Below, piece by piece: positions 2,385-28,765 of a stretch of 48,119 nucleotides of DNA. The position numbers were made by a program, and so were the translations under genes. The DNA is from Thermoanaerobaculia bacterium (GTDB lineage: Bacteria > Acidobacteriota > Thermoanaerobaculia > Multivoradales > UBA5704): positions 1 through 48,119 of the forward strand of contig JBKKAU010000228.1 of the NCBI GenBank assembly GCA_046714475.1. Direction: 5' to 3'. Position 1 is the stretch's first letter; every line of letters begins with the position of its first letter. The notes under the pieces are model-generated. The model worked only from the letters and a program-made list of their open reading frames with translations. It was not told where the DNA came from and ran no database searches.

Positions 2385-2449
2385 CCGGCCGAGTCTTTAC
2401 CAAGCACGGGGGGTTGCGCAAGGGTGGGGGGCGAAGAGGTCGAGCGCCA

Positions 2450-3077: not shown

Positions 3078-3134
3078 GCCCCCCTCGTCCCCCATCAGCG
3101 AATTATAGGCCCCAGCGCGAGGCCTTCCGGGGTT

Positions 3135-3929: not shown

Positions 3930-4025
3930 AGGAGGATTGAATTATAGCAGAACGCGCAAAGGCGCCGGTCTCAGCGCATCGGCCCAGCTGCGGACCACCC
4001 TCTGTGTGCTAACGTCTTGATTCTT

Positions 4026-4358: not shown

Positions 4359-4540
4359 ACCGGATCACGCTCGGCTGAAAAGGCTGTCCCGCGGCGATCC
4401 GCCACGAAGACCTCGTCGGCCCGGCCTTCCGGCGCATGGAAGAGCTCGCCGCCCGCCACGTCGAGCCGCCGCAGACGTTCATTGCGTCCGAAGACGACGA
4501 GTAAGAGCCCCCCGCTCTCCTCCGCATCCCGGCACGTCTT

Positions 4541-4559
4541 GAGAGAACGGCGTTCTCTC
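4541..4559. promoter_or_regulatory. Perfect 8+3+8 palindrome GAGAGAAC-GGC-GTTCTCTC, 36 nt upstream of the TerB-gene start
   Basis: Read directly: 4541-4548 gagagaac, 4549-4551 ggc, 4552-4559 gttctctc. It lies in the 236-nt gap preceding the three-gene module, so it is a candidate operator or 5'-UTR hairpin. Confidence 0.3.
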
Positions 4560-4594
4560 GATAAGCTTGTCGTGTCTCCTGAGGGAATGTCGTC

Positions 4595-6685
4595 ATGAGC
4601 AAACGCAAGCACAAGGGGGCTGGTTGCCCCGGGGACCGGTTCTGGGTGCCGGCGGGCAGAACCGTCGAGGTGGCGGGTTACTGGATCGACGGCATGGTGT
4701 ACGGTGGCGCGGGGCTCGGCCCGGTAGCCCGGGGGCGCCTCCCGGCGGAGCCCGCGCTCCTCAATCCTCTCCTCCCGGTAGCCCGGAGGGGGCGCCCCTC
4801 GGCACAGCCGCTGGAGCCCCGCCCCTCGTACTTCCGGATGCTCCCGTCGCAACGGGCTGCTTATCTACGGTGGCTGGAAGGGGGCCGGAAGGACCCGACG
4901 GTCGACATCGGTTTCGTCTTCCTCTTCTTCTCCGGTATCGAGCGGCGCGTCCTCGTGGATGCCGGGTCCTCGGACCGGGCGCGGGGCGACGTGCCCGGCC
5001 TGATCGCCGAGGCCGAGCGTCTGCTGGACATCTACGGAGGCAACTCCTTCTTCAGCTACTATGCGGAGCCCTTCCTTTTCCTCGCCCGCCTGCTGTCCCG
5101 GTCGGTCGACGTCACGAAGCTCACTCCGCCCCCGAGACCGATCTACAGGAGCCGCTTCCTCCCCCTGACCGTCAGGGTCGCCCTCGGAGCGTTCGCGGCG
5201 CGGGGCCAGCGGATACCGCCGGAGTGGGCCTACGCCTGGGCCAGCCACGCGCCGGACATCCGCCTGGGAGCGCCGGCTGATCGCACTCCGGACGAGTTCG
5301 AGGCGGCTTTCAAGCTCCGTTACACGAAGTCCTTTCCCGGCGGCGGGCTCAGGATCAGCCCTAACCCCAAGCCTTCGTCAGTCCTGTACTTCCCGGTGAG
5401 TCCGTCTTTTTTTGGCCCGGTCTCGGTCCAGGTCAAAAACCTGCCGAGAGAGTTGGACCTGGCGTTCTGCCGGCGCCAGCTCCAAGAGGTCGTGAACCAG
5501 GTCGCCAGCGACCTGCGCGCCTACAGTCTGCGAACGACAATGGCCAGTTGGCGCGGGAGCCCGGCGACGGTCGCTCTCCTCCCGGCGGAGCTGGCGCGGC
5601 TCTGGGACAGTCGGGAGCTCCAGACGTTCTTCGCCTGGCTCGAAAAGGAGCTGGCCGGCGGCGAGCCCGCCCCGTTGCCGGCCGGCGACCTGATCCGGCG
5701 CTGGACCCGGGGCGCGGTGACGCGGCTCGTCCGTGGCGACGCCGAGAGGTTGGCGTCCTTCCTCGGACGCCGCGGGTACGGGATGGAGCCGGACGTCCGC
5801 TTCGGCGGTCCTCTGCCCGACGGCGCGGGCAAGGCGCCGGTGGTCCTGTTCCGGCAGACCGCGGAAGAGGACGGGGAGCGAAAGCCGAGCCTCTCGTACC
5901 AGGCCGCCGCCGTCCTCCTGCAGCTGGCGGTGACGCTCGCGGTGGCCGACGGTCCGGTGAACGATGCCGAGGAGCGCTACCTGCTCGCCTACTTCGACAC
6001 CACCGCTCACCTCCCTCTGGACGAGCGCAAGCGGCTCGCCGCGCACCTGATCCGGATCATGACGGAGCCGCCCGGGCTCGTCGGCCTCAAGCAGCGGATC
6101 GCGACGCTTGCCGAGGAGCAGCGCCGGGCGATCCTCCGCTTCCTGATCGTGTTGGCCGAAGCGGACGGCTCCGTCCAGGCCGAGGAGCTCAAGCTGCTGC
6201 GCCGGATCTACGCCTTGCTCGGGCAGGACCGCCAGTCCCTCTACTCCGACGTCCACGCCGTGGCGAGCGCGCTGGAGCCCGTGACCGTGCGGCCGGCGGG
6301 CGCCGGAGCGGACGGCTTCGCCATCCCCCCCGCCTCCCCGGGAGCCGGCATCGCCCTCGACGAAGCCAGGATCCGGACCCGGCTCGCCGAGACCGAGGAG
6401 ATCGCCGGGATCCTCGACGCGATCTTTCGCGAGGAGGAGGCCCCCGGGCCGCCGCCCGTCGCCGGGCTCGACGGGGCGCACTCGGCGTTCCTGCGGCGGC
6501 TGGCGGAGAAGCCGGCCTGGGAGCGGGCGGAGGTCGAGCGGCTCGCGGCGGGCCTCGCCCTGCTGCCCGACGGCGCGCTCGAAACCCTCAACGAGACGGC
6601 GTTCGAAAGTTGTGGAACCCCCCTCCTGGAGGGGGACGAAATCCTTGTGATCGACAACCAGGTTCTCCAGGAGATGCTGGCATGA
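4595..6685 (+). CDS. sngA: TerB-N / TerB / TerB-C multidomain protein (Shango SngA-type)
   Basis: 696 aa.
- TerB-N-like N-terminus: PSYFRMLPSQRAAYLRWLEGGRKDPTVDIGFVFLFFSGIERR.
- Two TerB-like helical units: LAVADGPVNDAEERYLLAYF and LAEADGSVQAEELKLLRRIY.
- TerB-C-like tail: LDGAHSAFLRRL...LPDGALETLNETAFE.
ATGA overlap with the next gene. Confidence 0.8.
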   Translation: MSKRKHKGAGCPGDRFWVPAGRTVEVAGYWIDGMVYGGAGLGPVARGRLPAEPALLNPLLPVARRGRPSAQPLEPRPSYFRMLPSQRAAYLRWLEGGRKDPTVDIGFVFLFFSGIERRVLVDAGSSDRARGDVPGLIAEAERLLDIYGGNSFFSYYAEPFLFLARLLSRSVDVTKLTPPPRPIYRSRFLPLTVRVALGAFAARGQRIPPEWAYAWASHAPDIRLGAPADRTPDEFEAAFKLRYTKSFPGGGLRISPNPKPSSVLYFPVSPSFFGPVSVQVKNLPRELDLAFCRRQLQEVVNQVASDLRAYSLRTTMASWRGSPATVALLPAELARLWDSRELQTFFAWLEKELAGGEPAPLPAGDLIRRWTRGAVTRLVRGDAERLASFLGRRGYGMEPDVRFGGPLPDGAGKAPVVLFRQTAEEDGERKPSLSYQAAAVLLQLAVTLAVADGPVNDAEERYLLAYFDTTAHLPLDERKRLAAHLIRIMTEPPGLVGLKQRIATLAEEQRRAILRFLIVLAEADGSVQAEELKLLRRIYALLGQDRQSLYSDVHAVASALEPVTVRPAGAGADGFAIPPASPGAGIALDEARIRTRLAETEEIAGILDAIFREEEAPGPPPVAGLDGAHSAFLRRLAEKPAWERAEVERLAAGLALLPDGALETLNETAFESCGTPLLEGDEILVIDNQVLQEMLA

Positions 6686-14365: not shown

Positions 14366-17224
14366 TCAGCCGCCGGACGCGGCGACGGCCACCGCGGCGG
14401 GTCCATCCACTGTCAGCGGGGTGGGCGGGGCCGACAGCTCGTAGGCGCCCTCCCGCCGCAGGTCGTAGATGACGATCGCCTCGGCGGCGTGGTTTGCCGC
14501 CGGGCTTTTCGTCCGGGCGATGGCGATGGCGCGGTCGCGCGCCTGGTCGTCCGGCCGGTAGACGTTGAAGGCTTTGAGGTGCCGGGCCGCCTGCTCCTTG
14601 TCGCCGAGTTGCCTGTAGACCAGGTGCAGGTTGTAGTGCGCGGTGGCGTTCTCGGGGTCGAGCGTCAGGGTTTTCTCGAAAAGGTCACGGGCTTCGGAGA
14701 GCAGGGCGTCACGGCGCGTCCGGCGGGCGTCGCCACGCTCCTGGCGGGCGCGCTCGATCAGCGTCTGTCCGAGCTCGTTCAACAGGCGGTAGTCCTTGGA
14801 GAAGTCGAAACCCCGCTGGCGCATCTCCTCGGTGTCGGCCTGGATCAGGCTGCGGAAGTTGGTGATCGCCTCGTCGAGGAAGCCGTTCTGCTTGTTGACC
14901 TGGCCGGTGAGCCAGGCGACGGTCCATTGCGGCGCGGGCGGATCGAACGAGGCGGCGCGGCTCAGGGCCTCGACCGCCTTGTCCTGCACCGTGCCCTGCT
15001 CGATGTAGACGCGGGCCCGGTTCAACGGGCCGTCCGGCCGGCCGAGCGCCTCGACCTGGGAGAAAGCCTCCTCGGCCTGGCGCAGCTCGCCCTTGCTCTT
15101 GCCCCCCTTGAGCAGCAGGCCGATGCCGTAGTCGTTCCAGCGCTGCCTGGGCTCGACCGGCAACTCCGCGTTGGTGGGCCTGGCGGAGGAGCCGGCGACG
15201 GGGAAGGTGATCCGATCGGCCGCCAGCGTCATGACCGGCAGGTCGTTCTCGAAATCCTTGCCGAAGACGTGCTTCATGTAGCGGGTGTCGAACTTCCGGT
15301 ACTGGAGCTTGACCTCGACGGTGACCGGCTCGCGCACGTCCTTGGGGAGGTCCAGGCGGTAGTGGATGACGTCGGCCGCCCCCGGCGGGATCTGGTGGTT
15401 GTAGAGCGGGACGAAGATGTCCTCGGGGTTCCGCCGGTCGATGCGGTTGCCGTTCCGGTCGAGCATGTAGACGTTGACGAAGTGCGACCAGGGGTCGACC
15501 TCGCGGTCCGGCCCGAAGCCGCCGCTCCTGCCGATGACCCGGCCGCCGCTGGTCGCGGTCACGTCCACCCAGACCTCGTTGGAGTCGGCGGTCCCCTGGG
15601 TGAAGGGGTGGCCGATCTTGAGCGTGCGGATCACGGCCTCCAGCAGGTAGGGCTTGCCGGGCTCCAGGGCGGGGACCTGGGGACGCAACGGCGCGGTCAG
15701 CTTGCCGTCGATCGTGCCGCCCTCCTTGACCCCGAAGAGGTCGACGCGCAGGACCCCCTCGTTGAACTTCTTGTGCTTCTCGTTGACCCACGCCGGCAGC
15801 TTGAGCAGGTGGGGGATCGCCGTGTTGGCCGACGGGAACATGTGGTCGCGGACCTTGAGCAGGCCGGAGTCGTCGTAGCTCTTGGCCGCGAAGTCCTCCG
15901 ACGCCATCGGCTGCATATGGCAGGAGGCGCAGTTCTCGCTGGCTTTGGCCGGATAGTAGAAGCTGGCGACGCCGTGGCCGGACGCGCCGGAGAGCAGGAA
16001 CGTGTCGTAGTGGTTCTGGCCGCGCAGCCACTTGTAGTGGTTGAGCTCGGGCGGCAGGTGGACCTTGTGGCAACTGCCGCAGAACTCGGCCGTGCGGTGC
16101 AGCGGCTTCAAGAACGTCTTCTTGTGGAACTCGGGCTTGGCCTTGACGAGCTGCCGGTTGACCCACTGCAGGGTCTGGCTCTGGCTGAACGCGAACGGAT
16201 AGTGGATCGGCTCCTCGATCGTGTAGTCGGCGTTGCCGCGCGGGCTGTTGACGTGGGTGATCGAGTGGCAGGCCGAGCAGGTGAGCCCGGCCTGGCCGGC
16301 CGGGTCGTGGACGTCGTCGAACTTCGGGTCGTCGAACTTGCCGCTGAAGAAGACCACCGGGTCGTGGCAGCCGGCGCAGAAGCGGGAGGCCTGGACGTCG
16401 CCGTCGCGCTTCAAGGACTGGGCGCGGGTCTGGCGGACCGAGAAGAGATAGGCCGGGTTGTTGAACGAGCTGAACCGGTGCGCGCTGTTCTGCCAGCCCT
16501 CGTGGACGTCCTGGTGGCACTGGGCGCAGTACTGGTTGTTCATCAGCGTCCGCGCCGGGATGAAGTTGCCGGTCGAGGTGCGGGCGAGCGACGGGAAGAA
16601 GTAGCGCTCGCCGGAGGCCGGGCCGGCGACGTTCCACTGCCGCGGGTCCTGCGCCTGGACGATCAGCAGGACGACGGCGAAGGCCCCGGCGACCGCGGCC
16701 CAGCGCAGGCCGACCTTCCACTTGATGCGTTTGCCGGCGAGGCGGTGGAGGATGAACAGCCAGACCGCCGCGAGGGGGCTCAGGACGTGGAGCCAGTAGG
16801 AGACCGATCGGACGGCCGGGTCCTTGACCACGATCACCCCGTCGATCCGGGTCAGGACGATGCCGCTCGCCAGCAGCACCAGGGCGGTCGCGAACAGCGA
16901 ATAGCCGACGAGGACGGCGCGCCGGTTTGGTCGGTTGTGGGCGTTGCGGATGTGGGCGACGCCGAAGGCGATCACCGGCACGACGATCAGCAGCCCCATC
17001 ACCAGATGGAGCAGGAACATGTACATGTAGAACCAGTTCTGGTACGTCTTGCCGGTGACCCATTCGAGGAACGTCGTGCTCGCCAGGTAGGTCGAATTGA
17101 CCGCCAGCAGCGCGAACAGGCCGAAGACGACGAAGAGCAGCTTCTTCAACCGGGGTCCCACGGCGGGGAGGTACTTCCTCTTGCGCGGCGGCGTGGGTTG
17201 GCTGGGAGTCTCTGGTTCCATCAT
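14366..17224 (-). CDS. Membrane-anchored multihaem (5 x CxxCH) c-type cytochrome with C-terminal TPR domain
   Basis: Start taken at MMEPETPS (17224); the 14366..17554 ORF extension is Arg/Pro-rich. About 4-5 N-terminal TM helices. CAQCH, CAGCH, CSACH, CGSCH and CASCH are present. The C-terminal third has TPR-like repeats (AHYNLHLVYRQLGDKEQAARHLKAF). 21-nt gap to the CRTAC1 gene. Confidence 0.8.
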   Translation of the reverse strand: MMEPETPSQPTPPRKRKYLPAVGPRLKKLLFVVFGLFALLAVNSTYLASTTFLEWVTGKTYQNWFYMYMFLLHLVMGLLIVVPVIAFGVAHIRNAHNRPNRRAVLVGYSLFATALVLLASGIVLTRIDGVIVVKDPAVRSVSYWLHVLSPLAAVWLFILHRLAGKRIKWKVGLRWAAVAGAFAVVLLIVQAQDPRQWNVAGPASGERYFFPSLARTSTGNFIPARTLMNNQYCAQCHQDVHEGWQNSAHRFSSFNNPAYLFSVRQTRAQSLKRDGDVQASRFCAGCHDPVVFFSGKFDDPKFDDVHDPAGQAGLTCSACHSITHVNSPRGNADYTIEEPIHYPFAFSQSQTLQWVNRQLVKAKPEFHKKTFLKPLHRTAEFCGSCHKVHLPPELNHYKWLRGQNHYDTFLLSGASGHGVASFYYPAKASENCASCHMQPMASEDFAAKSYDDSGLLKVRDHMFPSANTAIPHLLKLPAWVNEKHKKFNEGVLRVDLFGVKEGGTIDGKLTAPLRPQVPALEPGKPYLLEAVIRTLKIGHPFTQGTADSNEVWVDVTATSGGRVIGRSGGFGPDREVDPWSHFVNVYMLDRNGNRIDRRNPEDIFVPLYNHQIPPGAADVIHYRLDLPKDVREPVTVEVKLQYRKFDTRYMKHVFGKDFENDLPVMTLAADRITFPVAGSSARPTNAELPVEPRQRWNDYGIGLLLKGGKSKGELRQAEEAFSQVEALGRPDGPLNRARVYIEQGTVQDKAVEALSRAASFDPPAPQWTVAWLTGQVNKQNGFLDEAITNFRSLIQADTEEMRQRGFDFSKDYRLLNELGQTLIERARQERGDARRTRRDALLSEARDLFEKTLTLDPENATAHYNLHLVYRQLGDKEQAARHLKAFNVYRPDDQARDRAIAIARTKSPAANHAAEAIVIYDLRREGAYELSAPPTPLTVDGPAAVAVAASGG

Positions 17225-17344
17225 GTCCTGTTGTCCCGCGTCTCCGGTCCTGGCGGGAGAGTACAGCCGAGCTGTCCGGCAGGTGGCCTGAGGCCGAATT
17301 GTACGCCGGCCGGAGCGTTTCTCGGCTACACTGCCGGCCAACTC

Positions 17345-18250
17345 GTGAGGGACACCCTCTTTCTCGTCAACCCGCGGGCGGGGAGCGGCCGGGCCAGCCG
17401 TGTCTGGGAGGCCGCGCTCGCCGGTTTCCCCTGCACGGCGGAGGCGGCGGTCATCGCCTCGGCCCAGCCGGAGCTGTCGATCCGTGTCCTCGACGAATGG
17501 CTGGAGGCGGGAGGCTCCCGTCTCATCGTGATCGGGGGGGACGGCTCCGTCCACCTCGCGCTCAACCGGCTCTTCCGCTCCGGCCGCCAGGCCGAGGTGT
17601 CGCTCGGTCTCGTCCCGGCCGGCACCGGCTCGGACCTCGCCCGCACGTTGGGGATTCCGCGCGATCCGCGGGCGGCGCTCGCCCGCGCCCTGAACGGCTC
17701 ACGGCGGGCGGTGGACGTCCTCGCCGTCCGAGGGGAGGGCGGCGCCGGCGGTTATTGCCGCTACGTGATGAACGTCGCCTCGGCGGGGATCTCGGGTCTG
17801 GTCGCCGAGAGGGTCAACGCGCGGACGGTGCGGCGGCCGACGACCTACCTGACCTCGACGCTCCGGGCCCTCGGCGCCTATGCCCCCTTCGCCTGCCGTG
17901 TCGAGGCGGACGGCGAGCCCTGGTACGAGGGCGAGGTGTTCCTGCTGGCCTTCGCCAACGGCCGCTCCTTCGGCAAGGGGATGCGGATCGCGCCGCGCGC
18001 CGAGATCGATGACGGGCTCGCCGACGTGGTCCTGATCCGTCCGATGCCGCGCTGGCAGATCCCCCTGCGCATGCCGCGGGTCTTTCTCGGCACCCACCTG
18101 GAGACGCCGCATGTGGTCTGGCGCCGCGCCCGGCAGGTCCGTCTCGAACCCGCCGGGCCGCTGCCGCCTTTCGAGGTCGACGGCGAGCTGATCCCCTCCG
18201 GCCCCGCCGTCTTCGAGGTGCTGCCGGGGGCGTTGTGGTTTCTGGGGTGA
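17345..18250 (+). CDS. Second YegS/DAGK-like lipid kinase
   Basis: GTG 17345 gives (M)RDTLFLVNPRAGSGRA..., then LIVIGGDGSVHLALNRL and LGLVPAGTGSDLARTLGIP. No ATG is available in frame, so the start is uncertain. Confidence 0.7.
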   Translation: MRDTLFLVNPRAGSGRASRVWEAALAGFPCTAEAAVIASAQPELSIRVLDEWLEAGGSRLIVIGGDGSVHLALNRLFRSGRQAEVSLGLVPAGTGSDLARTLGIPRDPRAALARALNGSRRAVDVLAVRGEGGAGGYCRYVMNVASAGISGLVAERVNARTVRRPTTYLTSTLRALGAYAPFACRVEADGEPWYEGEVFLLAFANGRSFGKGMRIAPRAEIDDGLADVVLIRPMPRWQIPLRMPRVFLGTHLETPHVVWRRARQVRLEPAGPLPPFEVDGELIPSGPAVFEVLPGALWFLG

Positions 18251-21427: not shown

Positions 21428-22750
21428 CTAACCTTCCCCTCCAAACCGTATCCCCAGCTTCTTGAGAAGTCCAAACGGCGGCACGCCGCCGGCAAAGACG
21501 AAGACGTAATCGTTTTCCATCTCGACCGTCTCGCTCTCGCCGATCCGGAGCCTTACACTCACCGGTCCGATCTCCAGCGGCTGGGATGAGAAAAGCGGCC
21601 TGAGCCTGCCGCTCGCCAAGGCTTCCGCGAAAGCGGACTCATTTTTCTTCTTGATGCGGACCAGCTTCTCCCGCCGGTAGGAGAAGACGACCTCGTTGCC
21701 GGGCTGGCGGGTTAGGCCGACGGCGGCCTCGACGGCGCTGTCGCCGCCGCCCACGACCAGGATCTTCTGGCCGCGGTAGCCTTCGGCGTCCATCAGGCGG
21801 TACATGACCTTGGGGAGATCCTCCCCCGAGATGCCGAGCTTGCGCGGGCTGCCCCGCCGGCCGAGGGCGAGGACGATATGGCGGGCGCGCCAGGTGCCGC
21901 CTTGCGAGCGCACCAGGAAATGGCACTCCTCGCGCCGCACGTCCTCGACCGCTTCGCCGAAGCGCACGTTGAGCCGGTGGTCCCGCACCATGCCTTCGAA
22001 CATCCCCAGCAGGACCTCCTTGGCGTACTCCTCCTTGCGCAGCTCTCCCCAGGGCGGCAACTCGACCCGCTGCGTGAGGACCATTTTGCGGCGCGGGTAG
22101 TGGAGAAGGCTGCCGCCCAGGTTCTCTTCCTTTTCGAGGACGACGTGGGACAGCCCGGCGCCAGCCGCGGTCAGGGCGGCGCTCAGCCCTGACGGCCCGG
22201 CGCCGACGATCGCCACGTCGAGCACCCCATCCTCCGGCGGATCCTCGCGGCCCCTCTCGGCGACGTGCTCGATCACCTGACGGCCCTGGTGCACGGCGTT
22301 CTTGACCAGGGCGAGCCCGCCGAGCTCGCCGACGACGTAGATCCCCGGCACGCTGGTCTGGAACGATTCGTCGAGCAGGGGGACATCCTCGCGCGACTTC
22401 ATGTCTCCCAGGCCGACCGTGATGGCGCCGACCGGGCAGGCCTCCTCGCAACGGGCGTGCCCTACGCAGCGCAGCCCGTTGACCACGACCGCGGTGCCGC
22501 CGACGATGCCGAGTACGTCCCCTTCCGGGCAGGCGCGGACGCAGGCGCCGCAGCCGATGCAGCGCGCCGGATCGATGTAGGGATACTGGGCTGTGGGACG
22601 GTCGATCCCCAGGGCGGCCGCCTCCTCCTTGCGCTCGCGGTCGCCACGCACGCGGCGGCGGAACTTCCAGAGGTAGGGGAGGACGATCAGCGCCGCGACG
22701 ATCAGGGCGGCGCTCCAGAGCAGGACGGCTTCGGACGGCAGGGCGGTCAC
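21428..22750 (-). CDS. Membrane-anchored 4Fe-4S ferredoxin domain fused to a thioredoxin-reductase-fold FAD/NAD(P)H oxidoreductase (FNR-like)
   Basis: 440 aa.
- N-terminal TM helix, then KFRRRVRGDRERK (positive-inside).
- CIGCGACVRACP plus a degenerate CVGHARCEEACP.
- GxGxxG sites VAIVGAGPSGLSAA and ILVVGGGDSAVEAAVGL.
- No CxxC redox disulfide; only one other Cys. Confidence 0.8.
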   Translation of the reverse strand: MTALPSEAVLLWSAALIVAALIVLPYLWKFRRRVRGDRERKEEAAALGIDRPTAQYPYIDPARCIGCGACVRACPEGDVLGIVGGTAVVVNGLRCVGHARCEEACPVGAITVGLGDMKSREDVPLLDESFQTSVPGIYVVGELGGLALVKNAVHQGRQVIEHVAERGREDPPEDGVLDVAIVGAGPSGLSAALTAAGAGLSHVVLEKEENLGGSLLHYPRRKMVLTQRVELPPWGELRKEEYAKEVLLGMFEGMVRDHRLNVRFGEAVEDVRREECHFLVRSQGGTWRARHIVLALGRRGSPRKLGISGEDLPKVMYRLMDAEGYRGQKILVVGGGDSAVEAAVGLTRQPGNEVVFSYRREKLVRIKKKNESAFAEALASGRLRPLFSSQPLEIGPVSVRLRIGESETVEMENDYVFVFAGGVPPFGLLKKLGIRFGGEG

Positions 22751-22754
22751 TACT

Positions 22755-24383
22755 TCAGAAGCGGTACCCGAGGCCGAGGCTCAGGCGCTGTCCCTCCAGG
22801 TCGTCGCCGGTCGCGACCTCGACCTCGGCGCGGCCGAAGAGGTCGAGCGGCAGCTCCAGCCAGAGGGAGGCGCGGCCCCACTGAGTCGAGCGCTCCTCCT
22901 CGATCTCGCTCTCGCGATAGAGGGTGGTCCCCACGCTCAGGGTGAGGGCGTGGCCGGCCCCGAAGGTGCGGCCGGCCCGGGCGGTGACGAGGAGGCCGTC
23001 GGTCACGGGGTTGGTGAACCCCATGACGTCGGCCCCCAGGGAGAGGCCCAGAACGCCGGAGTGGCCGGCGCCCAAACCCAGAGAGAAGGCCCGGTCCGCG
23101 TCGAGCGCGGCGCTGCCGGTGCTCGCGCCCCCCTCTTCGCCGAGACGGGCGCCGGCGCTCACCGACCACTGAAAGCCCTGGGCCGGGGAACGCTGCCAGC
23201 TCACCCGCAGCCCCTGGCGGATGAAGTCCTCGAAGAGCTCGACCGGGATGAACCGGGTCTCCTCGGTCCAGTAGCGCTCGAAACGGTCGTAGGAGAGGAC
23301 CAGGCGGCCCTCGGCGGAGAGGCGCCCGATCGCCGTCAGCGCCACGGTCGAGAGCTGCGATCCCGAGCCGGCGGCCTGCTCGCGCCAGCCGCGGTTCAGG
23401 TCGAGCTCGGCGTGCTGGAAGAAGGACCAGCGCGAGCCCGCGTCATACCGGCTCTCCAGCGTCACGTACTCGCGGCTGATGTCGACGTCCCCCTCTTCGC
23501 GGATACCCGCGAGCAGCACCTCGAAGCGGTCGCGCGCCTCCTCGCTCGCCGGGCCGAACCGGGTGAAGACGCCGTACTTGCTCCCCGAATTCTCGAAGCC
23601 CAGCTCCTCGATGTCCGGGTTGAGACCGTAGAAGCCGCCGACCTCCACGCCGCGGACGATCCGCGTCTGGGCCAGGGCGCCGTCGAGATAGCCGATGCCG
23701 GCGAAGGGGCTGGTGCCGAGCCGGCCGAGGCGGAAGCCGGCGCGGCCCTCGGGCGGCTCGTAGATCAGGGCCAGCTCGTAGAGGCGGTCGCGGCTCTCGC
23801 GCTCCGGGATGCCGAACAGACGGCGGGTCCGCTGCTCGTCCGAGGTCCGGAGGCGCAGCCGCGCCTGGAGAGGAGTGCCGGCGATGCCGCGCGCCCTGAG
23901 ATTGAGGCGCACGGCCGTGCGCTGGAAGTCGCGGCCGGCCTCCGAACCGTCGGAGAAGCTTTCATGATCGACGCTGACCGTGCCCGCGAGGCCGGTGCGG
24001 GAGAGCCCGTACCCGCGGCTGGAGCTCTGGGGGAGCTGCGCCGGAGGTTGGGGCTCGGGCGCCGGAGCCGGCGGGCTTTGCTCGCTTCGCGGCTCGGGAG
24101 ACGTCTCGCCCAGCCGCCGCGCGCGGTCTCCCGCCTGGACCGTCTGCCGTTCGGAGACGATCCGGCAGGAGGCTGAATGCTCGGCCGCGAAGATCACCTC
24201 GACCTCGGCGATGACCGACCCGCCGCGCAGGACCTGGAGGCGGTCCCCCACGTCGACCCCCGCAGCCTTGCCCGCGTTCAGGTAGACCGTTTCGGCGGAG
24301 CGGTAGCGGACCTGGAGGTCGGTCTGGGCCGAAGCGACAACGGCGACCAGAAGGAGGATGAAAAAAAGGGTTTTCATTTTCAT
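22755..24383 (-). CDS. Outer-membrane beta-barrel protein (porin-like partner of the decahaem cytochrome)
   Basis: 542 aa. Signal peptide MKMKTLFFILLLVAVVASAQT, a small soluble domain, the Pro-rich linker SPPAPAPEPQPPAQLP, then about 400 aa of alternating-hydrophobic strands ending LSLGLGYRF (C-terminal aromatic OMP signature). ATGA overlap with the upstream cytochrome. Confidence 0.7.
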   Translation of the reverse strand: MKMKTLFFILLLVAVVASAQTDLQVRYRSAETVYLNAGKAAGVDVGDRLQVLRGGSVIAEVEVIFAAEHSASCRIVSERQTVQAGDRARRLGETSPEPRSEQSPPAPAPEPQPPAQLPQSSSRGYGLSRTGLAGTVSVDHESFSDGSEAGRDFQRTAVRLNLRARGIAGTPLQARLRLRTSDEQRTRRLFGIPERESRDRLYELALIYEPPEGRAGFRLGRLGTSPFAGIGYLDGALAQTRIVRGVEVGGFYGLNPDIEELGFENSGSKYGVFTRFGPASEEARDRFEVLLAGIREEGDVDISREYVTLESRYDAGSRWSFFQHAELDLNRGWREQAAGSGSQLSTVALTAIGRLSAEGRLVLSYDRFERYWTEETRFIPVELFEDFIRQGLRVSWQRSPAQGFQWSVSAGARLGEEGGASTGSAALDADRAFSLGLGAGHSGVLGLSLGADVMGFTNPVTDGLLVTARAGRTFGAGHALTLSVGTTLYRESEIEEERSTQWGRASLWLELPLDLFGRAEVEVATGDDLEGQRLSLGLGYRF

Positions 24384-25249
24384 TCTCTCCCCCTGGGATG
24401 GCAGTTGAGACAGGCCCTGCTCTCGTAGCGGTAGCCCCCGACCCGGCGGTGCTCGTCATCCATCTCCGAGCGGCGGTGGTCGTGACAGGTCAGGCAGGAG
24501 AAGGTCTGGAGGTTGCCGCTCGTGTGGCAATTCGAGCAGGAGGACCAGGTCCCTTCATGGACGCCGGAAAAGATCGGGAAGAACCGGCTGTCGTGGACGC
24601 GGAAGTCGGCGCCTGCGAAGCTCGACGTGCTGTGGCAGGCCTCGCACTGGGTGGGGAAGCCCAGCTGCACGTGGTTGGGCTGCGCCCGCCGGTAGTCCTC
24701 GGCGTGGCAGGAGAAGCAGTCGTTCGGGGTGCCCGCGAACTCGAACGGCGGCGCCTGCCGGTGACAGGCCCCGCAGTCGAGACGGGTGTGCGCGCCGGTC
24801 AGCGGGAAGAGCGAGGCGTTGTGCAGCTCGAAGATCCGCCGCCGGTTGTCCCAGCCCGCTGGAGTGTGGCAGCTCTCGCACGCCAGCCCCAGGGCCCGGC
24901 GGTGCGGGTCCTCGTGGCAGTCGGCGCAGGCGGTGCTGACATGGGTGAACCGGAGGTCCTGGTGGCAGCCGATGCAGGCGACCTGCTTGTGGCTCTTGAG
25001 GAGCGGGAAACCGGTCTCCTTGCCGTGGTCGAACGGCAGTGACTTCTTGAGCGGCCGCCAGCCCTCGGGGGTATGGCAATGACTGCAGCCCACTTTGAGC
25101 GGACCGTGGGGGTTGCGGCTCGCCTCCTGGGCCCGGTCCGGAGCGGACTGGAGCAGCAGGAGGAGGACGGCGAGGCAAAAAACCCTCGCTCCGAGGTCAG
25201 CGGATCGCGGCGAGACTCGCACCTTGTCTTCCTCCATGACACCCCTCAC
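24380..25249 (-). CDS. Periplasmic decahaem c-type cytochrome
   Basis: 289 aa with 10 CxxCH (CSHCH, CIGCH, CADCH, CESCH, CGACH, CFSCH, CEACH, CSNCH, CLTCH, CLNCH). Signal-like h-region VFCLAVLLLLLQSAP. The exact start is uncertain (ATG 25249 or 25237); either overlaps the end of the 23-haem gene. Confidence 0.85.
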   Translation of the reverse strand: MRGVMEEDKVRVSPRSADLGARVFCLAVLLLLLQSAPDRAQEASRNPHGPLKVGCSHCHTPEGWRPLKKSLPFDHGKETGFPLLKSHKQVACIGCHQDLRFTHVSTACADCHEDPHRRALGLACESCHTPAGWDNRRRIFELHNASLFPLTGAHTRLDCGACHRQAPPFEFAGTPNDCFSCHAEDYRRAQPNHVQLGFPTQCEACHSTSSFAGADFRVHDSRFFPIFSGVHEGTWSSCSNCHTSGNLQTFSCLTCHDHRRSEMDDEHRRVGGYRYESRACLNCHPRGRE

Positions 25250-27053
25250 AGGTCGTAGGCAGCGGCTTGTAGCGGACGATGGTCCGGCCTTCGCGGGTCT
25301 CCGGCTTATGGCAGGCGGCGCACGGCAGGCGGCGGTGCGCCCCTTCGAGCCGGAAGCGCGAGCTGCGGTCGTGATCGAACGTCGCCCGTTTCCATCCGAG
25401 AACGGAATGGCAGGCCTGACACCGGACTCCTCCCGCCGCCTTCTGTCCGGCCGGGACGAGCTGTCCCCCGTGAGGATCGCCGTGGCAGGAGGCGCACTCG
25501 GTGGGCGTCCCCTGGAAGCGGATCCGCTCGCGGGGCGTACCGCGCTCCACCGTTGGATGGCAGCTCCGGCAGGCGACGCGCTGATGCCCCCCTTCGAGGG
25601 GGAATCCCGTCCGGTCGTGGTCGAAGATCACGTTTTTCCAGCTCTCCAGCGAGTGGCAGGTCTCGCATCCCCCCTGGACGACAAAACGCTTCACCTCGCC
25701 CCGATGGGGATCGCCATGACAGGTGAGACAGGCGGTGGAGGTGAAATGGAACTGGATCGTCTTCGACGGGCCCCGCGGGCGGTGGCAACTGATGCAGGGC
25801 ACCGCGAGATGGGAGCCCTGCAACGGGAACGAGGTCTTCTGGTGCTTCTCCAGGGTGAAGGTCGATGGTTTGAAGCCCTCGACCGTGTGACAGCTCGCGC
25901 AAGGCTGACCTTTGAGCTGGCCGAGATGGACGTCCTTGTGGCAGTCGGCGCACTGCTGGAACCGGGCGATGCGGGTGGTGGTCTGCCCAGCGCCGTGGCA
26001 GCTCTGGCAGGGGACCTGGCGGTGCTCGCCGCGCAGCGGGAACCGCGTCTTGTCATGGTTGAAGCTGGATCGCGCCGCCCCCGTCTTCCAGGCGGCGGTG
26101 GTATGGCAGGACTGGCAGGTCGCCCCGAACCGCCCCTGGTGCGGGTCTTTATGGCAGTCAGTGCAGCGCTGGTGGGCCATCTTGGTGAAGGTGGGGCCGC
26201 GATGACAGCTCGCGCAGGGGAGGGAGCGGTGCCGCCCGGTCAGGGGGAAGCCGGTGCGGTCGTGGTTGAAGCTCGAACGGTCGACCGATTTCCAGCCCTC
26301 CGTCGAGTGGCACTGCTGGCAGTTGGCGCCGAACCGCCCCTGGTGGGGGTCGCGGTGGCAGCTCGCGCAGGCTGCATGCTGGATCCCTTTGAGCTGCAGA
26401 AAGGAGCCGGCGGCGTCCGTTTTCGCTGGATGGCAGGAGGCGCAGGCCACGGACGCGTGCTGTCCCGTGAGCGGGAACTTGGTTTGGCCGTGGTCGAATC
26501 CCCGCGCCGGCTTCCAGGCCTTCTGATCGTGGCAGGAGACGCAGCTGGTGGAGAGCTGCCCCCGGTGTTCGTCCTTGTGGCAGGAGAGGCAGGCGGTACC
26601 GAGCCCGAGGAAGGTGCGGGACGGATTGGCGTTCTGGAGCTCGCGTGGGTTGCGGATCAATTTCGGCTGGTGGCAGGCGCGGCAGGTGAGCGCCGCGTGG
26701 GCGCCGGCCAGGGTGAAGCCGGTCTGCCGGTGGTCAAAGCCGGCCGAGCCCTGCTTGCCCCAGTGGATCAGTTGGAAGTCGCGCCCGTGGTGCTCGTTGT
26801 GGCAGGTCTTGCACTGCCGGTATTCGGGTCGGGCATGAAGCCCCTTCCCGGCGGCGATCCGCTTCTGGAGCGGGGTGTGGCAGGAGAGGCAGCGCTCGGG
26901 CGTGGCGCCCTTTCCGGGCTGATGGCATTTGAGGCAGTTGGCGCTCCCTTCGAGCCGCACGTGGGCGCGGCTGAGCGGGCCGGGGGAGAGCTGCGCGCCG
27001 GCGGGGACCTCCCCGAGGAGGATCGCGGCGAGGAGCAGCCCGGCTTGTCTCAT
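25197..27053 (-). CDS. Periplasmic 23-haem c-type cytochrome built from repeated paired-CxxCH modules
   Basis: Start at MRQAGLLLAAILLGEVPAGAQ (27053), a signal peptide. I count 23 CxxCH in 618 aa. The listed ORF extension to 27632 is Arg/Pro-rich and lacks a signal peptide. ATGA overlap with the upstream membrane-protein gene (27050-27053). Confidence 0.85.
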   Translation of the reverse strand: MRQAGLLLAAILLGEVPAGAQLSPGPLSRAHVRLEGSANCLKCHQPGKGATPERCLSCHTPLQKRIAAGKGLHARPEYRQCKTCHNEHHGRDFQLIHWGKQGSAGFDHRQTGFTLAGAHAALTCRACHQPKLIRNPRELQNANPSRTFLGLGTACLSCHKDEHRGQLSTSCVSCHDQKAWKPARGFDHGQTKFPLTGQHASVACASCHPAKTDAAGSFLQLKGIQHAACASCHRDPHQGRFGANCQQCHSTEGWKSVDRSSFNHDRTGFPLTGRHRSLPCASCHRGPTFTKMAHQRCTDCHKDPHQGRFGATCQSCHTTAAWKTGAARSSFNHDKTRFPLRGEHRQVPCQSCHGAGQTTTRIARFQQCADCHKDVHLGQLKGQPCASCHTVEGFKPSTFTLEKHQKTSFPLQGSHLAVPCISCHRPRGPSKTIQFHFTSTACLTCHGDPHRGEVKRFVVQGGCETCHSLESWKNVIFDHDRTGFPLEGGHQRVACRSCHPTVERGTPRERIRFQGTPTECASCHGDPHGGQLVPAGQKAAGGVRCQACHSVLGWKRATFDHDRSSRFRLEGAHRRLPCAACHKPETREGRTIVRYKPLPTTCEGCHGGRQGASLAAIR

Positions 27054-27898
27054 CCAGAGCCCCAGGCATAACCCGTGAGGATCGCCACGGCGACGTGGAC
27101 GATCATGAAAAGGTACATCACCACCGCGAACGGTTTGTGGAACACGTGCCAGTAGTGGAAGACCTGCTGCAGCCGGTCCCAGAGCAGCAGCCGGCGCCGG
27201 AGCACGGCCCTCTGGCGCGCCGTCCGGGCGAGCTCGCGGCCGAAGCCGCGGCGGAAGGCGCGGAGGCGCCAGCGCAGGCGTAGCCCTTCGACTGGAAGGC
27301 GGCAGAGCAGCGCGAGGAGGCCGATGTCCGGCGAGAGACCGCCCTCGGCGACCGCGTCCAGCTCGCGGAGGGTCTCTTCGGAGACCCCGAGCTCCTCGCG
27401 CAGCCGGCGGCCCGTCTCGCGGCTCAGCTCCTCGGCCTCGGCGAGGCTCAACTGGTCGCCGGACCGCGCGCGGGGGATCTGTAGATAGAGGTAGCGGCCG
27501 AGAACCCCGGAGAGGGCGACCGCGATCATCGACCAGAAGCTCAGCGCCACCAGCCCCTGCACCTTGAACGAGCTGTGGAGGATCACGAGCAGTGGGCCGA
27601 TGATGCCGCAGAAGATGTGGAAGTCGAGCCACGAGCGGAGCTTGCCCAGGCGTCGCAGCGGCTTCGCCCGCTTGCGGACCGAGTAGAGGAGCATGAGGAC
27701 CATGAGCGACGCTCCGATCACGCCGAAGGCGTGCCCATACGAGCCGCCCGGCTTGAGTTCCCAGAAATCCTCGTGATGCGGCCGCTCGACCAGCGGCGTC
27801 CCGTAATACGACCGTCCCTCCAGGGCGAAATGGAGGATCGCCGCGAGCGCGGCGGCGTAGAGCAGGCAGAGGACGGTCTTGCGGATGGCGCCATCCAT
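27050..27898 (-). CDS. Polytopic inner-membrane protein with two H-x13-H helices (putative dihaem b-type cytochrome)
   Basis: Start at MDGAIRK (27898), 282 aa, about 5 TM segments. FHIFCGIIGPLLVILH (H94/H108) and FHKPFAVVMYLFMIVH (H254/H268) each space two His 14 residues apart. A long Arg-rich amphipathic insert sits between TM4 and TM5. Confidence 0.6.
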   Translation of the reverse strand: MDGAIRKTVLCLLYAAALAAILHFALEGRSYYGTPLVERPHHEDFWELKPGGSYGHAFGVIGASLMVLMLLYSVRKRAKPLRRLGKLRSWLDFHIFCGIIGPLLVILHSSFKVQGLVALSFWSMIAVALSGVLGRYLYLQIPRARSGDQLSLAEAEELSRETGRRLREELGVSEETLRELDAVAEGGLSPDIGLLALLCRLPVEGLRLRWRLRAFRRGFGRELARTARQRAVLRRRLLLWDRLQQVFHYWHVFHKPFAVVMYLFMIVHVAVAILTGYAWGSG

Positions 27899-27958
27899 AC
27901 AGGTCTTCGACAGCGCGGAGGGTGGCGCCGGAACAGGAGGTCTGATAGGAATGACGGC

Positions 27959-28765
27959 GTGGTTCGTACCGGAATCACTTTGGCCGTAGCGGCCGGGATC
28001 GCCCTCTTCGTGCTCGACAACTTCGCCCGTCAGGCCCTCTATCCCGCTCCGTCGGTGGCGGTCCCTTCGCCGCCGCCTTCCAGCCTGGAGGAGGTCCGGC
28101 TCGACCTGTCCACCGGCGAGAAGGCGGCGGGGTGGGCCCATGCCGGCTCCTCGCTGCCGCCGGAGGCCCCGGTCGTGGTGTTCTTCCACGGTAATGGCGA
28201 GAACCTGCAGACGATGGCCTGGGCGGGGCTCTACGAGGATCTCAACGGCCTGGGGATCGCCTTCCTCGCGGTCGACTATCCTGGCTACGGCCGCAGCTCG
28301 GGCTCACCTTCAGAGGAGGGGCTGATAGCCACCGGCGAGGCCGCCGTCGCCTGGGCGCGCCAGCGGCACCCGGACCGGCCGCTGGTCCTCTGCGGCTGGT
28401 CACTGGGCGCCGCGGTCGCGATCGCCACCGCCGCTCGCCATCCGCAGGAGGTCCGCGGGCTCATCGCCCTCTCCCCCTGGACCACCCTGGAGGAGGTCGC
28501 CCGGCTCATCTTCCCCGGCTTCCTGGTCAAGGCGATGCTGCGGGAGACCTACGACTCCCTCGCGATGGCGAAGCAGGTCCGTGTCCCCTCCCTGGTGATC
28601 CATGGCGAGCTCGACGACCTCATCCCCGCCTCCCAGGGAAAACAGATCGCCGAAGCGCTCGGCGGGCCGACCCGCTGGGTGGCGGTCCCCGGCACCGGTC
28701 ACAACGACCTGTTCGCGCAACGCCAGGTCTGGAAGGAGTTGGCCGAGTTCCTGAAGAGCTTTTGA
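27959..28765 (+). CDS. Alpha/beta hydrolase (serine hydrolase)
   Basis: VVVFFHGNGEN, nucleophile elbow GWSLGAA and a late GTGHND His. GTG 27959 is the first start in frame after the antisense overlap, and TTG 27977 is an alternative. N-terminal hydrophobic anchor ITLAVAAGIALFVL. Confidence 0.75.
   Translation: MVRTGITLAVAAGIALFVLDNFARQALYPAPSVAVPSPPPSSLEEVRLDLSTGEKAAGWAHAGSSLPPEAPVVVFFHGNGENLQTMAWAGLYEDLNGLGIAFLAVDYPGYGRSSGSPSEEGLIATGEAAVAWARQRHPDRPLVLCGWSLGAAVAIATAARHPQEVRGLIALSPWTTLEEVARLIFPGFLVKAMLRETYDSLAMAKQVRVPSLVIHGELDDLIPASQGKQIAEALGGPTRWVAVPGTGHNDLFAQRQVWKELAEFLKSF

Follow-up and report, generated by a model that had tools for sequence, protein, structure and literature searches.

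The window analysed here, a 48,119-nucleotide stretch of DNA from a Thermoanaerobaculia bacterium, encodes a 282-residue membrane protein (hereafter the b-protein) that is a new acidobacterial member of the PCC3/PCC4-type 'conserved inner-membrane protein' (IMP) group, assigned by the published motif description and by the make-up of its gene cluster. The initial annotation had proposed a dihaem b-type transmembrane electron carrier, an idea that is already known since He et al. (2017) published the same signature and predicted the PCC3/PCC4 IMPs to be dihaem b proteins (PMC5566968); what we add to that work is evidence on the cytoplasmic partner of the b-protein. Extracellular electron-transfer clusters of the PCC3/PCC4 type are widespread, and of all their steps the passage across the inner membrane is the one least understood. 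We lean towards a PCC3-type conduit of five proteins in which the dihaem b-protein would help to carry electrons from NAD(P)H to the cell surface, bypassing quinones. Below we describe the protein, its genomic partners and the route that they suggest, and weigh the alternatives.

Paired histidines on two parallel helices

The gene and the elements of its product that matter for the argument are as follows; the coordinates of the two histidine motifs were checked, and the conservation of the three motifs was scored in 118 homologues.

27050..27898, reverse strand: b-protein gene, 282 residues, predicted five-TM inner-membrane dihaem cytochrome b of the PCC3/PCC4 'conserved IMP' type (translation, hydropathy, topology and AF2 model)
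27575..27631, reverse strand: TM3 motif W90-x3-H94-x13-H108 (WLDFHIFCGIIGPLLVILH)
27497..27511, reverse strand: TM4 motif S130-G131-x-x-G134 (SGVLG)
27152..27496, reverse strand: cytoplasmic insert, residues 135-249 (AF2 model and topology)
27095..27151, reverse strand: TM5 motif W250-x3-H254-x13-H268 (WHVFHKPFAVVMYLFMIVH)

The ATG at 27898 that had been proposed as the start codon is borne out by the homologues, whose N-termini align to it; a longer open reading frame beginning with a GTG at 28189 was rejected because it overruns a divergent hydrolase gene. Hydropathy analysis yields five hydrophobic segments and the AF2 model five long membrane helices, with the fold predicted with confidence (mean pLDDT 87.9, pTM 0.81). 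The protein contains histidines at positions 23, 41, 42, 56, 94, 108, 248, 251, 254 and 268. The two pairs on which the dihaem proposal was built, H94/H108 in FHIFCGIIGPLLVILH (codons 27617-27619 and 27575-27577) and H254/H268 in FHKPFAVVMYLFMIVH (codons 27137-27139 and 27095-27097), occur exactly as claimed, and both lie within transmembrane helices, in hydrophobic stretches at approximately 90-110 and 254-277 and in AF2 helices spanning residues 87-108 and 240-275.

With MAFFT we aligned 118 sequences, each representing a cluster at 50% identity and ~30-56% identical to the b-protein query; H94 and H108 occur in all 118, H254 in 109 (with five gaps) and H268 in 108 (with nine gaps). Judged from this alignment, the conservation of the pairs is beyond chance. 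H251 is highly conserved too (101/118); histidines 23, 41, 42 and 56 vary freely. Each pair is preceded by a tryptophan, W90 in 108 and W250 in 109 of the 118 representatives, and TM4 carries S130 in 116 and both G131 and G134 in every sequence, presumably forming a small-residue face for close helix or haem packing. By the positive-inside rule 33 lysines and arginines are allotted to cytoplasmic segments and 4 to periplasmic segments, and TM3 and TM5 therefore both run from the cytoplasm to the periplasm. H94 and H254 are located 4 residues, and H108 and H268 18 residues, past the respective interface tryptophan, so that the depths match; the pairs thus sit at equal depth on two parallel helices, as the dihaem proposal demands. 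All of this agrees with the published IMP signature, which comprises ~300 residues, five TM helices, W-x3-H-x13-H on TM3 and TM5 and SGxxG on TM4 (PMC5566968): the b-protein has 282 residues, five TM helices, the histidine motif at 90-108 and 250-268, and SGVLG at 130-134. Histidine conservation, matched depths and the shared motif set lend the dihaem carrier computational support, and on these sequence-based grounds the b-protein very probably holds two stacked b-haems.

The family is large: there are more than 1348 homologues, its members fall into 2998 clusters at 50% identity, and 63 of 301 sampled Acidobacteriota genomes contain matches. Its members are unnamed or 'hypothetical' wherever a source name was seen, except for one short homologue annotated as 'iron reductase', and neither Pfam nor NCBIfam holds a model for the family. 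The arginine-rich insert between TM4 and TM5 to which the initial annotation drew attention is real, consisting of 115 residues that include 23 arginines and no lysine; it is not without counterpart, as had been supposed, but a family-wide element with four predicted helices (residues 152-169, 174-185, 194-216 and 221-238 in the AF2 model). The aligned long-type homologues have inserts of similar length and variable sequence, and the insert is shorter in 228-residue proteobacterial homologues. It is a candidate docking platform for the FeS flavoprotein encoded in the same operon.

Operon partners and their replacement in relatives

Four further genes of the operon complete the putative conduit.

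25197..27053, reverse strand: secreted multihaem cytochrome c, 618 residues, 23 CxxCH motifs; Pfam Cytochrome_C7 and c3
24380..25249, reverse strand: second cytochrome c, ~289 residues (exact start uncertain), 10 CxxCH motifs; candidate outer or extracellular cytochrome of the conduit
22755..24383, reverse strand: putative outer-membrane beta-barrel (porin) of the conduit, 542 residues, with signal peptide and C-terminal ...LGYRF
21428..22750, reverse strand: membrane-anchored flavoprotein, 440 residues, with N-terminal TM anchor, ferredoxin domain and TrxR/YpdA-type FAD/NAD(P)H domain

The start of the 23-haem cytochrome gene overlaps the stop codon of the b-gene (ATGA) and the two are therefore translationally coupled; a gene of this type lies directly downstream of the b-gene in 61 of 80 loci. 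The 542-residue putative porin has no Pfam family. PCC3/PCC4 clusters combine a periplasmic cytochrome of 21-27 haems with a second multihaem cytochrome and a porin, and the operon likewise encodes cytochromes with 23 and 10 haems together with an outer-membrane-type protein of 542 residues. The remaining partner had been described as an 'FNR-like flavoprotein'; a flavoprotein is indeed encoded, but it is of the TrxR/YpdA type and not a classical FNR, to judge from its Pfam domains (Pyr_redox_3, 1e-39, and Fer4) and its PDB relatives (YpdA/Bdr, TrxR and TrxR-type FNR). Its ferredoxin domain contains the motifs CxxCxxCxxxCP and CxxHxxCxxxCP, and the N-terminal anchor, a basic stretch following the anchor and the cluster motifs are all conserved. 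Since a conserved basic stretch follows the conserved anchor, the FeS and FAD domains are expected at the cytoplasmic face, and we propose that the protein is the cytoplasmic electron-input module.

Gene linkage was assessed in 46 non-redundant long loci with at least 6.5 kb on either side of the b-gene. The flavoprotein is the most constant neighbour across several phyla, being encoded in 45 of these loci, compared to 43 for the long cytochrome and 42 for the porin; all three are present in 41. The genes come in different orders in Acidobacteriota, Myxococcota, Ignavibacteria, Bacteroidota, Fibrobacteria, WOR-3 and Bdellovibrionota, and the b-gene directly adjoins the flavoprotein gene in Bacteroidota, Ignavibacteria, Bdellovibrionota and on one acidobacterial contig of 10 kb, on which no cytochrome gene was detected. 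The whole module is also present on plasmid pEMTOL02 of Emticicia oligotrophica DSM 17448.

Two sets of relatives place a different module in the position of the flavoprotein. Short homologues on plasmids of Legionella, Methylophaga and Variovorax, which are related to the b-protein (hhalign E 5e-18), are encoded between a FAD_binding_6/NAD_binding_1/Fer2 reductase and a small multihaem cytochrome; all that is annotated of the reductase gene on a Bradyrhizobium plasmid is a 2Fe-2S remnant flanked by IS3. By its domain composition, this FNR-type FAD/NAD/2Fe-2S reductase represents a non-homologous displacement of the flavoprotein. Furthermore, in at least 12 of the 301 Acidobacteriota genomes matches to the b-domain fall inside open frames of ~790-880 residues. 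In all four of these fused forms that were fetched the b-domain is C-terminal to Fe-S motifs and a multihaem gene comes next; Pfam assigns cNMP-binding and polyferredoxin domains to one fused protein, and the Fer4_11-fused forms match the b-family profile with E values of 1e-20 to 1e-25. A direct fusion of b-protein and flavoprotein was not found among the long open frames inspected: those in G144 and G168 are upstream read-through, that in G028 is actually a fusion to a Ser/Thr kinase, and P0246 and P0239 appear to be chimeras that arose when genes were called across adjacent ones.

The arrangement both resembles and departs from what has been published. The IMPs listed in Supplementary Table 6 of He et al. 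are shorter, as are the homologues found here in triads of reductase, IMP and small cytochrome, and the Fer4_11-fused forms resemble PCC4 subgroup II. The published PCC3/PCC4 IMPs stem from Proteobacteria, Zetaproteobacteria and Planctomycetes, whereas the family described here extends to Acidobacteriota and FCB-group phyla; the TrxR-type flavoprotein with its ferredoxin domain, nearly always present here, is unreported by He et al.

These neighbourhoods bear directly on the role that He et al. (2017) proposed for the PCC3/PCC4 IMPs, namely a quinone-linked one (PMC5566968). The b-protein would then oxidise menaquinol or reduce quinone, exchanging electrons in one direction or the other with the multihaem cytochrome of the periplasm, and the flavoprotein would be auxiliary or unrelated; Gallionellaceae do have four-gene PCC3 clusters that are reported without a flavoprotein. 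A quinol donor is nevertheless hard to reconcile with the constancy of the flavoprotein gene, its direct adjacency to the b-gene in several phyla, and the sister subfamilies in which another NAD(P)H/FAD/FeS reductase or a fused polyferredoxin occupies the same position. To our knowledge, all characterised Gram-negative routes of extracellular electron transfer begin at the quinone pool (CymA, ImcH, CbcL), which speaks for a quinone link; a quinone-site motif is neither known nor seen in the b-protein. On balance we regard a quinone-linked role as unlikely.

A proposed route from NAD(P)H to the cell surface

The constancy of the flavoprotein, its replacement by an FNR-type reductase and the polyferredoxin fusions favour a route from NAD(P)H via FAD and FeS to b-haem. 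We infer haem binding, the pairing of the histidines, the donor and acceptor of the electrons and the direction in which they flow as follows. H94 and H254 would ligate a haem on the cytoplasmic side and H108 and H268 one on the periplasmic side, each in bis-His fashion. The membrane-anchored flavoprotein would oxidise cytoplasmic NAD(P)H and pass the electrons from FAD through its two Fe-S clusters to the inner b-haem, from where they would cross the membrane to the outer b-haem and proceed to the translationally coupled 23-haem periplasmic cytochrome. The porin and the 10-haem cytochrome would then deliver them to an acceptor outside the cell, such as Fe(III)/Mn(IV) minerals or humics, with a total of 33 c-haems on the way to the cell surface. 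The conduit would work like a split NADPH oxidase and bypass the quinone pool, and the initial annotation's likening of the operon to a split NOX-type NAD(P)H-to-outside exporter gains support, as an analogy, from the near-constancy of the flavoprotein and from its displacement or fusion in relatives.

It is possible, and we would go this far only tentatively, that the system amounts to a quinone-independent 'NAD(P)H-to-mineral wire' in which the FAD/Fe-S enzyme docks on the arginine-rich insert and which is spread horizontally with interchangeable inputs. Such a wire would be a bacterial equivalent of NADPH oxidase built from modules, with 2 b-haems and 33 c-haems, transferred horizontally over at least seven phyla (plasmid-borne in Emticicia) and fed by a TrxR-type module with Fer4, an FNR-type module with Fer2 or a fused polyferredoxin. 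Quinone-free export of electrons from NAD(P)H conserves no energy itself, and the benefit to the cell must therefore be redox balancing or a coupling that we do not see. If the flavoprotein is the donor, the cells could discharge NAD(P)H electrons to minerals or humics with no involvement of the quinone pool, and their energy and redox balance, as well as their part in the iron and carbon cycles of soils and sediments, would have to be modelled differently. The comparative pattern makes this a concrete, testable hypothesis, for which Emticicia oligotrophica offers a cultured and non-pathogenic carrier of the whole module.

The same components could in principle be run in reverse, with Fe(II), a cathode or a partner cell as the extracellular source of electrons that would pass through the cytochromes and the dihaem b-protein to the FeS flavoprotein and reduce NAD(P)+ or another cytoplasmic acceptor. 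Porin-cytochrome conduits are able to work both ways, PCC3 was first found in Fe(II) oxidisers, and a PCC3 IMP gene is up-regulated in the iron-oxidising Sideroxydans CL21. However, electron transfer from Fe(II) to NAD(P)+ would be strongly uphill, going by standard potentials, and inward electrons would oppose the membrane potential with no energy-coupling module in the operon. The class Thermoanaerobaculia moreover includes an Fe(III)/Mn(IV) reducer, and we consider inward flow quite improbable.

Comparison with other cytochrome b families

The proposed outward route resembles that of the ferric-reductase-domain (FRD) superfamily (PF01794: NOX/DUOX, Fre, STEAP, MsrQ), split MsrQ-Fre and bacterial NOX in particular. 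Its members bind two bis-His b-haems on their third and fifth TM helices, positions that are matched here, and pass electrons from cytoplasmic NAD(P)H via flavin to the outer face, the same path as proposed for the b-protein; a cytoplasmic NAD(P)H/FAD partner is represented by the separate TrxR-type flavoprotein and, for the short homologues, by the FNR-type enzyme. FRD proteins possess six TM helices whereas the b-protein has five, with its histidine pairs on TM3 and TM5 and no TM6. Further departures from FRD systems are that a distinct TrxR-type protein would serve as the reductase, that Fe-S clusters would intervene between its flavin and the haem, and that the acceptor would be a multihaem cytochrome instead of O2, an Fe-chelate or MsrP.

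Homology to NOX, MsrQ or FRD was not demonstrable by Pfam, hhalign or Foldseek. The sub-threshold Pfam matches of the b-protein are solely to b-cytochrome families (single-sequence E values 4e-4 to 5e-3): Ferric_reduct (PF01794) at residues 58-114, i.e. TM2-TM3 (20.3 bits versus a threshold of 28, E 6e-4), DUF4405 (PF14358) on TM5 (17.8 versus 26.7 bits) and Ni_hydr_CYTB (PF01292) over TM5, on residues 232-277 only (20.7 versus 30.1 bits). Among 34 family members, Ferric_reduct matches at E <= 0.01 in six and DUF4405 on TM5 in ten (best 4.4e-5); the family consensus scores more weakly than single members (Ferric_reduct E 0.017). Comparison by hhalign with E. coli MsrQ (E 0.15) and with a 10-sequence MsrQ alignment (E 0.21), a shallow profile of close enterobacterial sequences with 82-100% identity, was not significant and covered TM5 only; in the local alignment the histidines of MsrQ W147...H151...H164 are in register with TM5 of the b-protein, with a one-residue gap. 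Foldseek searches of the PDB with the AF2 model returned no match at E <= 0.001 and none to FRD; Dcytb and cytochrome b561, at ranks 2 and 15, reach only E ~2-4 and a TM-score of ~0.2, a comparison probably spoiled by the helical insert. Sequence searches of the PDB (phmmer and the family profile) gave only spurious coiled-coil matches to the insert.

That the b-protein matches no solved cytochrome b significantly would also fit a protein that carries no electrons, whose conserved histidines bind another metal or a transient haem, for instance as a delivery or maturation factor for the 23-haem cytochrome. CcsA and similar haem-handling proteins likewise use conserved TM histidines, and the cytochrome whose translation is coupled to that of the b-gene is very rich in haem. 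On the other hand, the b-protein lacks a WWD or other haem-lyase motif, the Emticicia cluster already has a separate full ccsA adjoining the module, and the cytoplasmic NAD(P)H/FeS linkage would serve no purpose in exporting haem. A parallel pair of H-x13-H helices is, moreover, classic bis-haem geometry, and we judge a haem-handling or metal-binding role very improbable.

The histidine spacing of the predicted dihaem b-protein recalls cytochrome b of the bc1 and b6f complexes, where two helices with H-x13-H provide the ligands for a pair of b-haems stacked across the membrane. Cytochrome b, however, has eight helices (or 4+3) and Qo and Qi sites, and its histidines reside on helices B and D, as opposed to TM3 and TM5 here; the b-protein has no Pfam Cytochrome_B match and the operon no Rieske or c1 gene. 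Prokaryotic cytochrome b561 (PF01292) is built on a four-helix dihaem core, compared to five helices in the b-protein. DUF4405 proteins, FoxB (PepSY_TM, PDB 7ABW) and FezC are small polytopic proteins with four central histidines as their most conserved residues and b-haem transmembrane electron transfer, and haem b binding has been shown experimentally for a DUF4405 protein (PMC11334425). They differ in having six TM helices, in lacking the 115-residue insert and in serving flavinylated extracytosolic partners and not multihaem c cytochromes.

At the level of the operon the same module logic is found in the Hmc, Tmc and DsrMKJOP complexes of sulfate reducers. In each of these operons a multihaem cytochrome c of the periplasm is combined with a cytochrome b in the membrane and an Fe-S protein on the cytoplasmic side. 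The complexes have neither an NAD(P)H flavoprotein nor a porin, their subunits are unrelated (NarI/HdrE-type b and HdrD-type CCG FeS proteins), and their electrons normally flow inward to sulfate reduction.

Membrane topology and conservation of the b-protein

The reading frame at 27050-27898 encodes 282 amino acids, and the start proposed for it in the initial annotation (ATG at 27898) finds support in homologues, whose N-termini align to it. It lies in an operon of five genes:

27050-27898 (-), predicted dihaem-b inner-membrane protein (b-protein)
25197-27053 (-), 23-haem cytochrome
24380-25249 (-), 10-haem cytochrome
22755-24383 (-), porin-like protein
21428-22750 (-), flavoprotein

Hydropathy delineates five membrane segments (residues about 8-26, 56-74, 90-110, 116-134 and 250-277), and there are ten histidines, at positions 23, 41, 42, 56, 94, 108, 248, 251, 254 and 268. 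Two histidine pairs had been reported in predicted transmembrane stretches; both stretches are present, each pair is headed by a tryptophan in a W-x3-H-x13-H motif (residues 90-108 and 250-268), and the four codons could be located:

Codons of the four motif histidines (reverse strand)
H94, 27617-27619
H108, 27575-27577
H254, 27137-27139
H268, 27095-27097

Of the lysines and arginines outside the membrane, 33 lie in the N-terminal stretch, loop 2 and the long insert between TM4 and TM5 and 4 in loops 1 and 3 plus the C-terminal end, an asymmetry that argues for an N-in/C-out topology with TM3 and TM5 both running from cytoplasm to periplasm. As the distance beyond the interface tryptophan is 4 residues for both H94 and H254 and 18 residues for both H108 and H268, the two pairs are placed at matching depths on parallel helices. 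An AlphaFold2 model built on a 121-sequence alignment is confident (mean pLDDT 87.9, pTM 0.81) and contains five long membrane helices. The Arg-rich insert spans 115 residues and is modelled as helices 152-169, 174-185, 194-216 and 221-238 with pLDDT of 80-94, and it is thus predicted to be a folded cytoplasmic domain rather than a disordered linker. Contrary to the earlier view that it has no known counterpart, an insert of similar length and variable sequence occurs in the aligned long-type homologues; it is shorter in homologues of 228 residues.

Conservation was read in three sets (18 close homologues, 34 diverse ones and 118 representatives at about 30-56% identity) with the same pattern throughout. 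H94 and H108 are invariant, and H254 (109 of the 118 representatives) and H268 (108) are retained in every ungapped sequence. W90 (108/118) and W250 (109/118) are highly conserved, S130-G131-x-x-G134 in TM4 is nearly invariant across the aligned homologues and H251 is retained in 101 of the 118, whereas the remaining histidines vary. The family is large: a 90%-clustered collection contains more than 1348 relatives, many from Thermoanaerobaculia or other Acidobacteriota, and 'hypothetical protein' is the label of those that have one. Run exhaustively over 1.84 billion representatives, HMMER matched 2998 clusters at E <= 0.001, 1649 of them at E <= 1e-10, and at the latter threshold the family profile finds matches in 63 of 301 sampled Acidobacteriota genomes. 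Neither NCBIfam nor Pfam holds a family model for the protein.

Relation to described haem-b proteins

The dihaem reading is backed by this comparative evidence, but its core is an independent rediscovery of a published prediction. He et al. (2017; PMC5566968) reported a conserved protein of the inner membrane (IMP) of the PCC3 and PCC4 porin-cytochrome clusters, in PCC3 of about 300 residues with five transmembrane helices, which carries W-x3-H-x13-H on TM3 and TM5 and SGxxG on TM4; they compared it with the ferric-reductase domain (FRD), predicted two b-haems and proposed a link to the quinone pool. In PCC3 a porin goes with two cytochromes, one periplasmic with 21-27 haems and one extracellular and multihaem, and the operon matches that description. 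The b-gene overlaps (ATGA) the gene of a secreted 618-residue cytochrome with 23 CxxCH motifs, followed in order by the 10-CxxCH cytochrome, the 542-residue porin-like protein (signal peptide, C-terminal ...GYRF) and the 440-residue flavoprotein. The b-gene would be an Acidobacteriota addition to a predicted kind of IMP already described. What we add is a consistent tie to NAD(P)H/Fe-S input modules on the cytoplasmic side, along with a cultured host that carries the module.

No Pfam match in single-sequence scans reaches its threshold, and those below it are all to b-cytochrome families and fall on the histidine-bearing helices:

Sub-threshold Pfam matches of the b-protein
Ferric_reduct, residues 58-114, E 6e-4, 20.3 bits (threshold 28)
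Ni_hydr_CYTB, residues 232-277, E 3.8e-4, 20.7 bits (threshold 30.1)
DUF4405, residues 248-270, E 4.8e-3, 17.8 bits (threshold 26.7)

Among the 34 diverse family members, DUF4405 is matched by 10, Ferric_reduct by 6 and Ni_hydr_CYTB by 3, and the family consensus scores below, not above, single sequences. Haem b binding has been demonstrated for a DUF4405 protein with four central conserved histidines (PMC11334425). A non-cytochrome or haem-handling role for the b-protein appears very improbable. With E. coli MsrQ, hhalign aligned TM5 alone, to the H151/H164 helix (E 0.15-0.21); PDB sequence searches were empty and Foldseek of the model against the PDB gave no significant match. Given the sub-threshold Pfam scores, the weak hhalign result and the empty PDB searches, homology to FRD, NOX or MsrQ is not established, and the likeness is one of geometry. 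The proposed analogy to a NOX-type exporter draws comparative support from the linked cytoplasmic NAD(P)H/Fe-S modules.

Cytoplasmic partners and the predicted electron route

The flavoprotein assigned to the far end of the operon is present, but is of the TrxR/YpdA rather than the classical FNR type (Pfam Pyr_redox_3, 1e-39; best PDB relatives YpdA/Bdr, TrxR and TrxR-type FNR). It has three parts: a conserved N-terminal transmembrane anchor with a basic stretch behind it, a ferredoxin domain bearing the motifs CxxCxxCxxxCP and CxxHxxCxxxCP, and the FAD/NAD(P)H domain. In the second motif (C-x2-H-x2-C-x3-C-P, residues about 94-105) histidine replaces the second cysteine in 9 of 11 aligned orthologues, and isoleucine in two, which points to either a [4Fe-4S] cluster with a histidine ligand or a [3Fe-4S] cluster; it may be the cluster that faces the haem.

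The five proteins were mapped onto 80 b-gene loci from one-per-species genomes, and neighbours were counted in those non-redundant loci, 46 in number, that extend 6.5 kb or more to either side of the b-gene:

Module genes near the b-gene
Flavoprotein, 45/46 loci
Long cytochrome, 43/46 loci
Porin-like protein, 42/46 loci
All three, 41/46 loci

The order of the genes varies from lineage to lineage; in Bacteroidota and Ignavibacteria the b-protein is followed by the flavoprotein, a 20-haem cytochrome and a cytochrome of 24 to 58 haems, the latter with 58 CxxCH in 1409 residues in Stygiobacter (Ignavibacteria; locus L081, 11682-15911 (+)). On one acidobacterial contig of 10 kb the b-gene adjoins the flavoprotein gene and no cytochrome gene was detected. 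The cultured Emticicia oligotrophica DSM 17448 (Bacteroidota) carries the full module, preceded by ccsA, on plasmid pEMTOL02, a location consistent with horizontal spread. There (L087; 78197-89995 of the 100-kb plasmid) ccsA, b-protein and flavoprotein are accompanied by cytochromes of 635 and 1001 residues and a 538-residue protein; the b-protein is WP_015031196.1, annotated as hypothetical, and the flavoprotein WP_015031197.1.

Short homologues (228-252 residues) occur on Legionella, Methylophaga, Variovorax and Bradyrhizobium plasmids, that of Legionella matching the family with an hhalign probability of 99% (E 5e-18). In the first three, overlapping genes encode a 612-691-residue reductase, the b-protein and a 240-285-residue multihaem cytochrome, triads corresponding to what He et al. 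listed as 'MHC + IMP + other redox protein' clusters (Supplementary Table 6, PMC5566968). The Legionella reductase contains FAD_binding_6, NAD_binding_1 and Fer2 domains; this makes it an FNR-type enzyme with no relation to the TrxR-type partner in the window. On the Bradyrhizobium plasmid the sole annotated trace of a reductase is an IS3-flanked 2Fe-2S remnant of 211 residues. The triads of Legionella fallonii (L086), Methylophaga pinxianii (L089) and Variovorax sp. WDL1 (L090) adjoin copper- or metal-related genes (multicopper oxidase, DUF411, periplasmic heavy-metal sensor, four-helix-bundle copper-binding protein), and the b-protein of Legionella is annotated by NCBI as 'iron reductase'; periplasmic metal reduction by these triads is possible.

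Of the profile matches in Acidobacteriota genomes, at least a dozen (E 1e-20 to 1e-25) lie within open frames of about 790-880 codons. In each of the four loci fetched, Fe-S motifs precede a b-domain that forms the C-terminus and has both W-x3-H-x13-H motifs, and the gene of a multihaem cytochrome comes next. The fusion proteins measure 815-847 residues (L091-L094). The one in L091 combines two cNMP-binding domains with a polyferredoxin (Fer4_11 and relatives) according to Pfam, run on this one of the four, and the gene after it encodes an FHA-domain protein with a multihaem cytochrome c domain (genes at 3211-5685 (-) and 1703-3127 (-)), an architecture that may point to electron export under nucleotide or phospho-control. 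Another fusion, of 689 residues (L095, 2495-4564 (-)), consists of a Ser/Thr protein-kinase domain and a full-length b-domain, with the gene of a 33-haem cytochrome immediately downstream.

In three subfamilies the cytoplasmic face of the b-domain is thus tied to a different Fe-S module each, and the periplasmic face always to a multihaem cytochrome, the pattern expected if the donor is a cytoplasmic Fe-S centre and not quinol. The quinol-linked cytochrome b envisaged by He et al. is for this reason unlikely here. With an Fe-S donor, electrons would pass at the cytoplasmic face from NAD(P)H via FAD to the two Fe-S clusters of the flavoprotein, which may dock on insert 135-249, then to an inner haem b (putative ligands H94/H254) and an outer haem b (H108/H268), and onward through the 23-haem periplasmic cytochrome and the porin with its 10-haem cytochrome to an external acceptor. 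The same chain run inwards would serve electron uptake, which we consider improbable, since transfer from Fe(II) to NAD(P)+ is uphill in redox potential and also has the membrane potential against it; outward flow is accordingly favoured. A route that bypasses the quinone pool conserves no energy by itself, and its role is therefore most likely redox balancing.

Other genes of the window

A large protein encoded at 14366-17554 (-) starts with a polytopic domain in which an H-x13-H helix (HVLSPLAAVWLFILH) is joined by other His-rich helices, followed by five CxxCH motifs and a long C-terminal region; the protein is possibly a membrane cytochrome in which b- and c-type parts are fused, and it does not belong to the b-gene operon. 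Divergent from the b-gene lies an alpha/beta-hydrolase-like gene with an N-terminal transmembrane segment (27575-28765 (+)). As listed, this frame begins inside the b-gene; its real start must therefore be further downstream, at about 27975, and roughly 80 bp are then left to accommodate two divergent promoters.
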